A DNA stretch of 62,054 nt, counting the filler, from Platydemus manokwari (Eukaryota), in NCBI GenBank assembly GCA_037951405.1. It is 6 parts of 6 records of this genome, joined end to end, with 100 filler letters (N's around TTAATTAATTAA, not from the genome) between each part and the next. Parts side by side here need not be neighbours in the genome. Positions count along the whole stretch, not along the records: positions 40,122 to 52,277 come from JBBMOY010282226.1; 5 more parts are not named here. One strand, given 5' to 3'. The notes below the pieces were generated by a model. It ran no database searches. It worked only from the letters and a program-made list of their open reading frames with translations, and was not told the DNA's origin. The position numbers were made by a program, and so were the translations under genes. Of the stretch, positions 43,755-49,000 are shown piece after piece. The first letter of the stretch is position 1, and each line of letters starts with the position of its first letter.

Positions 43755-46046
43755 ATGTTTTATAATGACAATGCATATTTTCAGGATTATCTGGCCTACA
43801 CTCAGTGGAGGGAGAACCAAAGGCGATTCACGGACCAATTCTACTCGAGTCAAATGCTCCCATCAGTCGGCAGTTCTTTCCTACTCCCACCCAGGCCAGG
43901 TATCCAAAATGAAGTGAATGATCATCTTGATCAATACAGAAGGAGGAATTATAATTCCTATAAAGGGTCCAATAGAAACAAAAAATCTAATTATCGTTAT
44001 TCTAGATCCAAGCGGCATAATCTGAAGGGTTTCAACACTGGCAGAAATAATACAAGATTACGTAATCAACATAATAATTATAATAATTTCTCTTCTAGAC
44101 CCCATAATCCCAGTGTCAGAAACCAGTCCTCAGAATCACGTATGGGAATCTCTGCTCAGAATCAGAGCACTCAGAATCACGATAATTTTAATTCCTCTAA
44201 CCATAATAATCATTACTCTTACAGACCCCGTCCTCAGTACTCCTCTGCTCCATCGGTTCCCCCAGGTTTCGAAAACCATGATTGGCACAGACAAGATTAT
44301 TATTTTATTAATAACAATGATTCTTTTTATTTTAGACCTGACCGCAACCCTATTGCACAGGAAAAAGGACCCTCTAATGATAGATCAACCGTAGTTGATA
44401 AATCTAATCAATTACATAATAATATAAATAATAATAATATCCATCATTCTAGAACCAGTAATCATACGAATTACAACACCAGACCTACTGCCAATAATAC
44501 CCACCGTGACTCTACACAGATCGGAAATCCGAATAATCAGGCACCGTGGTTATATTCGGATATCGTGCAAACAAATGCTTACCCACAACAAAATGGATTA
44601 CGTAATCACAATAATATAAATAATCCACCCTTTTTTAGACCGAACCAACAATTCCCTATGCCTCCTCCTCCACCTCATATCCCAAATACATCGAACAAGA
44701 CCAATCAGACCCGCCAACAACAATCACGAGACGATTTTATCACCCCCAACAGATGGGCCCAACAATCCCACCAAAATCCCAAAACAAACTTCCGGAGCCA
44801 AAACAGATATGATGCCCTCCGTAATATTGATGATAGGAACAACCAACCCAATCAAACCAATTCAAATATCCATAAGCCTTTTTTTCATTATAATCCTAAT
44901 AAATCTAATCTTAAAAATTCTAGATCTACTCAAACCCATCCCATGCCTCCGAAAAAACCCAAGGACAGTCCCCCTACCGCACGCCAGAGCATCCAGTTTA
45001 GGGGTCGACATGCGAATAACTGTGATCGCGAAAGCGAGCAGTTCAATCCAACGAAAAACCTTTTTTTAAATATTATTTTATTTATTTTATATAATTTAAA
45101 TATTAATTCTCACTTAGATATCATAGGCCTTTTATTATTTAATAAGATTAATATTAATAATTTTAAGAAATTAACTAATAATAATTTTCATAATAATAAG
45201 ACTAATAATGTTTTTCTTAATATTCTACTATCTATATTTAATAAAATCGGTATTAATAATATTAGTAGATTTAACATGTTATTATGTAATAATAACATTT
45301 CTTTAAATAATTTTCACCAAAATAAGCCCATAGATTTAAGTAAAACGACTGACCATATTAACTTAATCGACTTAAATGTAAAAGTTAATAATGATTCTCT
45401 TGACCAATTAATTATCAATCAATTAAATAGTTTTACCCAAACAGTAGATATAGACTTTATTTCAAATAATAAACCATTAATTAATCAAAATATAGTTATT
45501 AAAGATATTTCCCCAATTGACCAATCCACCCAAACTATTGATAGTCCATTGAATATAACTCCTACCCCTTATCAACTAAGGTCTAGCTTAACTTATATAG
45601 ATAGTAAAACCGACCTAAATGACACAGTTAATGCTAATGTTGATCCCGATGATATTAGACTTACCCAAATTGATTCAGATGACTCCATTGAAATAATCTC
45701 CCAATCTACCGTTAAATCTGATAAAATCCCAACTAACTTATATGGTGGAGCCCCAAATAATGACGCACAAATGACCATGCTCGATGATAAGACCGCGACA
45801 TGCACCCGCTGTGACAAATCGTATTGCTTTCCGTTTTCCAACACTAAGAATGTCCCTAAACATTACACGGATAAGCATAATATAGATATTCCAATAGACT
45901 TTACTATATTATGTCACTGCGGTTTTATAGGTAAAGCATTAACATTTAAGATTCATATTGATGAGCATAAATTAGGTAATAATTTTAATCCACCACCTGA
46001 CTTCGAAGACCTTGAATTAATCCCTGAAGATACTGACTCGGAATGA
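43755..46046 (+). CDS. Retrotransposon ORF1: N/Q/R/H-rich low-complexity protein with C-terminal C2H2-type zinc finger(s)
   Basis: 763-aa ORF. CTRCDKSY...PKHYTDKH and CHCG...IHIDEH near the end. Terminates at TGA 46044-46046. Confidence 0.85.
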   Translation: MFYNDNAYFQDYLAYTQWRENQRRFTDQFYSSQMLPSVGSSFLLPPRPGIQNEVNDHLDQYRRRNYNSYKGSNRNKKSNYRYSRSKRHNLKGFNTGRNNTRLRNQHNNYNNFSSRPHNPSVRNQSSESRMGISAQNQSTQNHDNFNSSNHNNHYSYRPRPQYSSAPSVPPGFENHDWHRQDYYFINNNDSFYFRPDRNPIAQEKGPSNDRSTVVDKSNQLHNNINNNNIHHSRTSNHTNYNTRPTANNTHRDSTQIGNPNNQAPWLYSDIVQTNAYPQQNGLRNHNNINNPPFFRPNQQFPMPPPPPHIPNTSNKTNQTRQQQSRDDFITPNRWAQQSHQNPKTNFRSQNRYDALRNIDDRNNQPNQTNSNIHKPFFHYNPNKSNLKNSRSTQTHPMPPKKPKDSPPTARQSIQFRGRHANNCDRESEQFNPTKNLFLNIILFILYNLNINSHLDIIGLLLFNKININNFKKLTNNNFHNNKTNNVFLNILLSIFNKIGINNISRFNMLLCNNNISLNNFHQNKPIDLSKTTDHINLIDLNVKVNNDSLDQLIINQLNSFTQTVDIDFISNNKPLINQNIVIKDISPIDQSTQTIDSPLNITPTPYQLRSSLTYIDSKTDLNDTVNANVDPDDIRLTQIDSDDSIEIISQSTVKSDKIPTNLYGGAPNNDAQMTMLDDKTATCTRCDKSYCFPFSNTKNVPKHYTDKHNIDIPIDFTILCHCGFIGKALTFKIHIDEHKLGNNFNPPPDFEDLELIPEDTDSE

Positions 46047-49000
46047 CTATCGAGTTCAGTTATTGAAGCATATATAAGATATAAGTTACCTAACCCGACT
46101 AAATATATTTTCATAAAACCACAGCCCGCAGTTGCTATTTTGAATAAAGATTACGAAACATTTTATAATTCATTTCCTTTTAAATATTTAGCCTCCTGGG
46201 AAATAGCTTTTTGGTTAATCCACTGGAATAACCAACATTGGAATCTTTATATTATCGATAAAAATATCTCTTCTTCATTTTTTATAGATCCCGCCACTTT
46301 TTTCATTAGTGATTCCCAAAAGCAACTGTGGAATACCCTTGATAGTTTATTTATTAATTTAAATTCTATAAGATCAAATATTATAATTAATCATAACTTA
46401 CTAACTGATCTCCCAAAACAAATTAATAATACAGATTGTGGTCTTTTTGTTATTCAACATATTTTAGATTACGCTAATAATTCCCAGATTTTTCACTCAC
46501 CTGTTTGCCCCGATCTTCGTAAAGATATAAATAAAACTATTAATTATTTAATTAAATTTAAAAATTCGAAAATTAATAATAATAATATTACGTCATCACA
46601 TGTTATTCACCCAACTTTAATTGAAGCTATTAAATTAATTAACTGTGAACAACCTAATTTAACGGAGATTCTAAATATGGCTGCCAATGCCCTAAGATCT
46701 ATAGACCCTTCTCGTTTTAATTCTAAGAAATTAATTAAACCATCAGTCTTACATTTTGCAAACCCGGAATCGTCCGATTTTAAATTAAGAGAAAATTTTA
46801 ATAACCAACCAAAGAAAACACTAAGACGAATTCTACCCTCATGCACACCTTCATCATTGCCCACCTTAGATAATATTATTGAACATTTTACGAAACCACC
46901 ACCACCGCCAATTCCAAATAATTTTAGACCGACTTTACCGATTTTCAATGATAATTCAAACCTGAAACCGATCACATTAGAAGAGTTAAACATTGCTTTT
47001 AAAGGTTTAGCTAATTCATCACCGGGCAATGATGGCATTACATATAAGGACTGGGTCACTATAGACCCAGAGCATGTATATTTATTAGAACTATTTAATA
47101 AAATTCTATCTTCTAAAGTAATTCCCAATCAGTGGTCATCATGCAAAACTTCATTATTATTAAAACCAGGTAAAAATTCGACCTCTCATATAGTTTCATC
47201 ATGGAGACCTATTGCTCTCACAGATACTTCTTATAGACTATTTGCCACCATTTTAAATAATAGATTATTAAAATGGATTACCACTGGTAATCTCCTATCT
47301 AATAATCAAAAGGCAATTCTAGCCTCAGATGGTTGTGCTGAACACAACGCTTATCTTTTTTCTCTTTCCGAATTTGCCTCACATAAGAACATTGATATTC
47401 ATATTTGTTGGATTGATTTCAGTGAAGCCTTCCCGAGTGTCCCCCATGATTTAATTTGGTATACATTAGGTAAAATGGGTTGTAATCTACACTATATTAA
47501 TATGTTAAAATCATTATATAATAATACATCAACATTTTATACTTGTCATAATATTACTACACCATCAATACCAATTCATAGGGGAGTTAAGCAAGGTTGC
47601 CCACTATCCATGACTCTATTTTGTTTAACTATAGATTTTTTATTAACTAGCTCTGCTAGCTTAGATAACCCACTCTCAGTTCATAATTTACCCTTCTCTA
47701 CCCTTGCTTACGCCGATGATATAGTTATTATTGCAAACTCTGGTGAAAACCTTGAGTCCCGTCTAAATCATATATACCACCTCGCTGACTCAATTAATCT
47801 TAAAATTAATGCTCAAAAATGTGGATATTTCACCAATAACCCCAGAAATAGGATAGATTTAAATCTAGAAAATGATCCAATACCGATTATAGATAGCGAA
47901 AATATGTATAAATACTTAGGAGTCCCATTTGGATCACCAAAACGAACCCCAATATCCGATATATTGAAAGGTATAATTACAGATTTTGAATATATAGTTG
48001 ATTCTAGATTACACCCAGCACAGAAATTTCAAGCATATAATATTTTCTTACATTCACGTCTGCCTTTCCATTTTAGAATCCAACAAGTTGAAACTACACA
48101 ACTTGACTCCCGTACACTGATTCAAGATGATGACGACAATAGATCTCAGGCATTTGACAAAAAAATAAGATTTTTATCTAGGGAGATACTCAAGATGAAT
48201 GGTTCGAAATCTTCCAGTATACCCTTTTTTTATTCACCACGCAAACTAGGTGGTTTAGGTCTCACTCCATCACTTTTAGAATATTGCATTCAATCTATAG
48301 TTTGTTGTTTTCGTTACTTAACCAGTCTCGACGACCCTTTTAGAGAATTTTTTACAAATCATTTACAATTTATTGCTAATAAACGACTGGGCTCATCTCA
48401 CCCAAATAACTTAGATACCGCTCTCTCCTGGTTAAGTGACAATATTTTGCCTAATACTAAAGCTTCTTCTACCTGGTTCACAAAAGTAAGATTCTCAGTT
48501 AGGAAATTAAGAAAATTTAAAATTGATATAAACTTTATTAATTATGAATCACAAATTAACATCAAGATGACCACTGGTTCAGATTCAACTTATTTCTTTT
48601 CTGTTGCAAATAAACATAAATTATCAGACATTCTGCATGACGCAGTTCAAATGTCCTATTTCAATGAATGGAAATCCCTGATTAAGCAAGGTCGGTTGGT
48701 CCACTGTTTCTCCGCATCTCATAGATCCCAAAAACCTCTAAATAATTGTCATCTTTCACCGGAGGTCTGGATTTTCACTCACTGGGCTAGGAATAATCTA
48801 TTATTATTAAATTATACACCATATTTTATTAAATTTAATAAATCTATACTTTGTAGACTATGTAATACAGAACCTGAAACAGCAGCACACATTTTCATAC
48901 ATTGCCCAGCAATCCCAGGAAAAGCCAGCAAACGCCATGCTATCATACTCGACATAATAGGCAGATATCTCCAATCACTAGGCATAGACACAGACATTGA

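Follow-up and report, generated by a model that had tools for sequence, protein, structure and literature searches.

A conserved in-frame UGA at the protease motif of a Platydemus manokwari non-LTR element points to probable programmed stop codon readthrough

How can a retrotransposon supply its reverse transcriptase (RT) when a stop codon divides its coding sequence and no usable start codon lies behind it? The question is raised by a non-LTR element (one that lacks long terminal repeats) on a 62,054-nt stretch of Platydemus manokwari DNA (the window), which consists of contigs joined by N linkers and supplies the coordinates given here. A frame reading confirmed the claim of an initial annotation that 43755-49400 is a single frame of 1881 codons, closed by a terminal TAA, in which the only internal stop is a TGA at codon 764 (46044-46046; context GAA TGA CTA TCG). 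This in-frame UGA is conserved and almost certainly real, and we favour, at a probability of about 0.78, programmed UGA-C readthrough that would yield much protein from the first open reading frame (ORF1) and little full-length protein, because such readthrough would account jointly for the identity of the stop, its frame, its context and the spacing of the domains around it.

A sequencing slip cannot account for the TGA, since a contig of sequencing run X1 (depth 53.8; possibly from the same sample as the window) shows no difference over 46034-46232. The last in-frame ATG 5' of the stop lies at 45777 and the first 3' of it at 46677, 211 codons downstream, beyond the protease His (46236) and Cys (46437), as had been annotated, and also beyond its Asp (46287). 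No productive AUG start for ORF2 is present, and the coding frame is kept on either side of the stop.

Relatives came from a metagenome scan with alignment A1, in which 449 stretches were confirmed and the best 80 (L loci) retained. The closest of these, L001 (34% protein identity) and L002 (32%), have one internal stop each, at the same codon as the window element: AGT TGA CTA GAT in L001, with 253 open codons before it (to the contig end) and 1152 after, and GCA TGA CTT AAT in L002, with 55 before (to the contig end) and 1108 after. The decayed relative on the next contig of the window reads TGT TGA CTA at this codon (TGA CTA at 57406-57411), and the synonymous changes noted around it in the initial annotation (GTT/GTC, GCA/GCT, TAT/TAC) were all recovered. 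TGA-CT thus stands at the same codon in all four clade members with DNA over the site (window element, decayed copy, L001 and L002), where the annotation had asked whether most relatives would instead carry TGG.

A more distant locus, L003 (29%; a full element of a sister group), has a lone internal stop (AAC TGA CAA), also in frame, 19 codons before the Trp-equivalent position and directly behind the second zinc finger, with 734 codons open before it and 1148 after. Zinc finger and protease are spaced 22-31 residues apart regardless of whether the stop falls at the start of this interval, as in L003, or at its end, as in the others, which is what translation as one protein would lead one to expect. 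The first in-frame ATG behind the stop comes after 69 codons in L001, 48 in L002 and 112 in L003. The base after the stop is C in all five protease-bearing sequences (window element, decayed copy, L001, L002 and L003), and the Leu codon that follows is CTA in three of four, with a chance of ~0.02 from Leu usage. Set against the type II readthrough pattern, UGA followed by CUA or CGG (CUD in alphaviruses), the window element, decayed copy and L001 have CTA, L002 has CTT and L003 has CAA. L003 appears to be full length (1-6861) and keeps its in-frame TGA-C with a dead protease that is without the catalytic His and Cys.

The features of the element and its immediate surroundings are as follows.

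43574..43731, + strand: copy of the 3'-end motif, diverged (74.5%) and carrying a T-rich tail, immediately 5' of the ORF1 ATG
43755..46043, + strand: ORF1, 763 codons, with a long N/R/S/Q-rich low-complexity part and, at its end, two putative zinc fingers of C2H2-like type followed by a linker of 25 residues
45801..45968, + strand: the two putative C2H2-like zinc fingers that close ORF1 (CxxC...HxxxxH; CxC...HxxxH), a pattern found by eye
46044..46049, + strand: the single in-frame stop TGA followed by CTA (hexamer UGACUA), where the Ulp1 W-L-x-D motif has its Trp
46047..46530, + strand: Ulp1-like cysteine protease domain (Pfam Peptidase_C48, E 1.5e-5) that includes His 46236, Asp 46287, Gln 46419 and Cys 46437
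47178..47927, + strand: RT domain (Pfam RVT_1, E 3.5e-27), with YADD at 47709
48744..49400, + strand: CCHC knuckle (weak Pfam zf-RVT match, E 4.7e-4) and what we take, from its RPD...D.K motif, to be a restriction-like endonuclease, up to the terminal TAA
49401..52165, + strand: probable 3' untranslated region with a tandem repeat, a two-hairpin motif and a T16 tail, its end point being approximate
57119..57776, + strand: decayed, frameshifted relative on the next contig, with the stop at the same codon

No Pfam family matched ORF1, and Pfam gave no hit for the zinc fingers (45801..45968); the by-eye finger pattern recurs, aligned, in L001 and L003. The CxxC-H-C and RPD..D.K motifs of the C-terminal region are common to the relatives in alignment A1.

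The stop aligns with residue 1 of the Ulp1 motif W-L-x-D-x-x-I-x-x-Y, a placement proposed in the initial annotation and upheld by the published Ulp1/NeSL alignment (S5 Fig, PMC4640811), with Trp at the equivalent position in 17 of 22 rows, by proteins outside the clade that carry a real Trp there (P0180, a fused protein of 1853 residues reading KWLSDSVI, and P0211, P0171 and P0009), and by solved structures. A profile search of the latter returned SENP1/Ulp1 matches (E 5e-14 to 2e-13) and aligned the stop with the Trp of SENP1 WLNDEIINFY (E 5e-14), although three of the seven profile rows carry a Trp set by coding TGA as W, so that the search locates the codon but is no proof of the residue; a single-sequence search gave weak matches only (E 0.16). 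The window element, L001 and L002 all retain the catalytic His, Asp, Gln and Cys. The motif Trp probably corresponds to W448 of yeast Ulp1. That residue helps to shape the tunnel around the Gly-Gly motif, as described in the relevant passage of PMC9603560.

The database proteins are compatible with a stop at this codon. The RT tree comprised 68 sequences (the window element, L001-L004, P0001-P0012 and the best 51 of 144 new proteins, P0205 having been dropped as too short), all of them unnamed proteins apart from one named spider protein, and with no named NeSL, R5, LIN or Utopia family; it was a quick tree with SH-aLRT support only, midpoint-rooted for drawing only. The window element falls in a clade of 15 rows (SH-aLRT 99) with L001, L002 and 12 database proteins, none of which reaches upstream over the stop codon. 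Eleven of the 12 begin 5 to ~100 codons behind it, at varied places, and P0169 begins within the RT. The N-terminus of P0166 is the first ATG after the L002 TGA, which shows how this pattern of shortened proteins arises. Tandem Ulp1-like domains, two or three per protein, occur in eight proteins of sister elements (P0007-P0010, P0171, P0172, P0175 and P0179), with the later domains degenerate. The protease stretch of the window element was used to look for longer proteins, and none turned up among 473 candidates, which is weak evidence; no relative of the element was found on viral contigs.

Variation among copies in run X1 was viewed through 86 contigs laid on 45700-46420, from which the 40 best-supported differences were considered. 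Of these, 27 are synonymous, and they occur both before and after the stop, giving weak evidence that the copies evolve as coding sequence 5' and 3' of it. The widest stretch free of all 40 is 46018-46090 (P ~0.045 for one that spans the stop; P 0.29 for one at any place), and this gap is itself weak evidence because 112 weaker differences lie outside the view and contig ends cluster there.

Of the 76 loci among the best 80 other than L001-L004, six are open to their 5' end and 70 show an upstream stop. As a control, just one of these 70 distant loci has TGA-C behind at least 100 open codons (L061; TGA CTC behind 301 open codons), and it was rejected as a readthrough case with its stop lying within a broken ORF2. 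The frameshifted L005 was set aside. In another distant element, L069, TAA ATG directly joins a 398-codon frame to the RT frame.

The hairpin at 46032-46060 proposed in the initial annotation does fold, its loop containing the stop (-9.4 kcal/mol; z -2.7 when the ends were picked by hand), and as a signal it did not hold up, being absent from L001 and L002; folding of 46020-46110 is unremarkable (z -0.7). Only L001 has conspicuous downstream structure (z -3.4, ranking 2 of 16 windows). Its region 765-975 holds strong, extended stem-loops starting ~10 nt into the readthrough site, alphavirus-like in appearance and absent in the window element.

On the reading we favour, most ribosomes would stop at UGA-CUA and release the ORF1 protein, whereas a minority would insert an amino acid at the UGA and continue into a 1881-residue protein with zinc fingers, protease, RT and endonuclease. 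The residues mostly inserted when UGA is read through are Arg, Cys and Trp, and here the codon would be decoded by a near-cognate tRNA with one of these as the usual product, at a ratio of perhaps a few percent. The Trp-containing product would probably be the best protease because the tunnel that takes up the substrate in yeast Ulp1 has this Trp as one of its walls, and the fusion would place the zinc fingers on the RT-endonuclease protein, as in single-ORF relatives. The description of UGA-CUA as a leaky context in the initial annotation agrees with the type II readthrough hexamer; UGACUA and UGACUD are listed as type II contexts, some with basal activity, in the relevant part of PMC13517186. 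The conserved TGA-CT likewise supports the annotation's proposal of readthrough, which would in turn set an ORF1:RT ratio.

Several observations weigh against this interpretation. A Leu codon that is CTN throughout has a chance of 0.15, and the protease motif itself also requires Leu behind the stop. The motif Trp is not invariant in the family, as 5 of the 22 published rows differ and P0011 has Tyr. The DNA view covers two of the 12 clade proteins (via L001 and L002), and contig ends may have cut some of the others; given the 112 weaker X1 differences outside the view, a minority of TGG copies is also possible. The sister-group locus L004, which has no protease and is frameshifted further down, carries TGA TGG with no C context (495-497, behind 164 open codons, between an S/T/N-rich ORF and the RT ORF); this stop may represent a third position or simple decay, and L004 was left out of the supporting cases. 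Regarding RNA structure, the hairpin at 46032-46060 is not formed by the matching regions of L001 and L002, and no downstream structure is common to the window element, L001, L002 and L003 when compared with synonymous shuffles. The window element is unexceptional downstream (z -0.5, rank 5 of 15), L002 (z -2.4) is ordinary for its own ORF (rank 7 of 15) and L003 is unremarkable. In tests of local pairing, a stimulatory downstream stem-loop, conditional for UGACUA, was thus seen in L001 only. In addition, the gag-UGA-pol junction of the LTR element Tca2 alone gave no readthrough in yeast in the experiments cited from PMC2194720, and Tca2 is a warning that a junction of the gag-UGA-pol type need not work through simple readthrough.

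The rival that survives best, although we consider it unlikely, takes the UGA as a true stop and ORF2 as a separate protein made by termination-reinitiation or by internal non-AUG initiation just behind it. Reinitiation in LINE-1 reportedly tolerates loss of the AUG. Termination-reinitiation is a described ORF2 route in the non-LTR elements SART1 and LINE-1 (relevant section of PMC5972666), and four sister proteins (P0008, P0010, P0171 and P0175) have a similar Met-Pro N-terminus shortly before an intact Trp motif, so there may be an ORF2 nearby that has its own start. Reinitiation is, however, indifferent to frame and to stop identity, yet the stop is always an in-frame TGA with C next in five of five sequences, and a reinitiated ORF2 would be without the tunnel Trp and the zinc fingers. 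An out-of-frame AUG that overlaps the window stop (AUGA, 46043), missed in the initial annotation and found by reading by hand, opens just 7 codons; the same overlap in L002 opens 2, and L001, L003 and the decayed copy have no such overlap.

Bypass of the stop at the RNA level, through splicing or through an internal promoter that gives a shorter ORF2 RNA, is very unlikely. An internal promoter is present at the Tca2 junction (PMC2194720, in the part cited), and a loose filter finds in-frame GT..AG pairs around the stop in the window element (n = 12) and in L001 (n = 10), but none in the available sequence of L002. The acceptors are without pyrimidine tracts, the nearest donor G (45976) is variable among copies, and any such splice would cut away where the protease motif begins, although this motif is conserved at the protein level. 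A shorter ORF2 RNA would still be without a start codon. One X1 contig does skip 45919-46178, with GC..CT ends that are not a splice pattern and a length that is not in frame.

Less probable again is a change in how the codon is read, either by A-to-I editing of UGA to UGI, read as Trp, or by use of UGA for selenocysteine. The codon takes the place of a Trp, differs from UGG by a single base and, in the window element, may lie in a hairpin, but editing would erase the stop because edited RNA is copied back as TGG, and TGA persists across the clade. Furthermore, ADARs disfavour a 5' G, the L003 stop lies at a non-Trp position and the hairpin is not conserved, while Rfam returned no selenocysteine insertion sequence (SECIS) or other family in the window, where nothing reached the gathering level, or in 49300-52277. 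The weakest proposals, a nonsense mutation in dead copies or a host that reads TGA as Trp everywhere, are already largely refuted, since, although TGG to TGA is a single transition and one copy is plainly decayed, a lone TGG-derived stop at the same codon in two more lineages has a rough chance of ~0.003 (~0.0004 if TGA each time), and the Trp codons of four ORF2s (64 TGG) and of the host CARM1 and TIR frames (11 TGG) include no internal TGA, which excludes a changed genetic code.

The ends of the element and the remainder of the window provide further context. A two-hairpin motif with a T-rich tail flanks the element at 43574-43731 and 52006-52165, the copies being 74.5% alike with both-sided changes in 2 of 17 predicted pairs, and it looks like the 3' end signal of the element; the copy before the ORF1 ATG may come from a tandem neighbour or a terminal repeat. 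Within the probable 3' untranslated region, approximately 49540-50860 is an A/T/C-rich tandem repeat with periods of ~50 and ~100 nt. Rfam found no family in 52166-52277, which follows the T16 tail and is likely to be target or next unit, and no convincing target gene at either element end in the window. The 3' end of L003 has a tRNA-like sequence (E 0.037) that by eye resembles the 3' part of tRNA-Phe. Short decayed RT fragments akin to the element lie at 32441-32853 (-) and 23624-23740 (-). Host genes in the window are a CARM1 arginine methyltransferase (8974-10350, -), whose best named matches are flukes and tapeworms, and a SAM-TIR protein (26532-28412, +), presumably SARM1-like.

Overall, programmed readthrough in the window element raises a broader possibility, to which we give slightly better than even odds: that a deep non-LTR clade sets its ORF1-to-RT ratio by UGA readthrough, with the leaky stop at two places in sister lineages and, where it stands at the protease gate Trp, with the inserted residue as a second switch. 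If true, readthrough would add a retrovirus-like route beside the reinitiation, internal initiation and StopGo of non-LTR elements, and would suggest that one base change turns a single-ORF element into a two-ORF element. Annotation would also need correcting, as gene callers shorten such proteins and make the elements look dead, a point relevant to mining site-specific restriction-like endonuclease elements for gene-insertion tools. The junction is short and hence directly testable by reporter. UGA readthrough is a known kind of recoding, and its non-LTR setting is without a report found; a full-text literature search, with the R5 description (Burke 2003; which may have noted the stop) and Repbase notes outside its coverage, returned no account of readthrough in a non-LTR element.

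Among known elements, the planarian R5, LIN9_SM, LIN15_SM, LIN24_SM and LIN25_SM are NeSL-related flatworm elements that target rRNA or tRNA genes, and the T-rich tails of LIN9_SM and LIN24_SM resemble that of the window element. R5 reportedly has two ORFs. Both the host and the T-rich tail suggest possible membership of this R5/LIN group. The window element has the NeSL-related traits of an RT followed by a CCHC finger and restriction-like endonuclease, with an Ulp1-like protease upstream of the RT. NeSL of nematodes and Utopia-1_TSP, as presented in the relevant parts of PMC4640811 (Kojima and Jurka 2015), where the protease is named in nematode families only, share the order of zinc fingers (putative in the window element), then Ulp1-like protease and RT, then C-terminal zinc finger and restriction-like endonuclease; they are described as one protein, mostly with Trp at the motif start, whereas the window element has TGA there and a split frame. 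The section of PMC3708506 on ancient clades states an uninterrupted single ORF, and because of its one in-frame TGA we do not file the window element as a plain NeSL.

Outside this group, the closest parallels are in recoded viruses and LTR elements. Alphaviruses place their polymerase downstream of a leaky stop. Type II readthrough in alphaviruses, coltiviruses and triatoviruses uses the same UGA-CUA or UGA-CUD context, with a stem-loop that is only conditionally required for UGACUA according to the part of PMC13517186 concerned; the window element differs in being non-LTR and in having no shared downstream stem-loop found. A stop that separates a structural ORF from protease-RT without a change of frame is likewise seen in gammaretrovirus gag-pol (PMC5009743) and Candida Tca2 (PMC2194720), as set out in the sections cited, but murine leukaemia virus (MuLV) uses UAG and a pseudoknot rather than UGA, and Tca2 is an LTR element, its bypass mechanism being left unsettled in that source. 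The window element differs from both gag-pol systems in that its protease is Ulp1-like and the stop lies inside the first motif of that protease. Non-standard translation also sets the amount of RT protein in SART1 and LINE-1, through reinitiation (PMC5972666), and in APE-type elements with 2A StopGo (PMC3708506), as these are described in the passages concerned; such elements give separate proteins, whereas the layout of the window element points to fusion through the stop.

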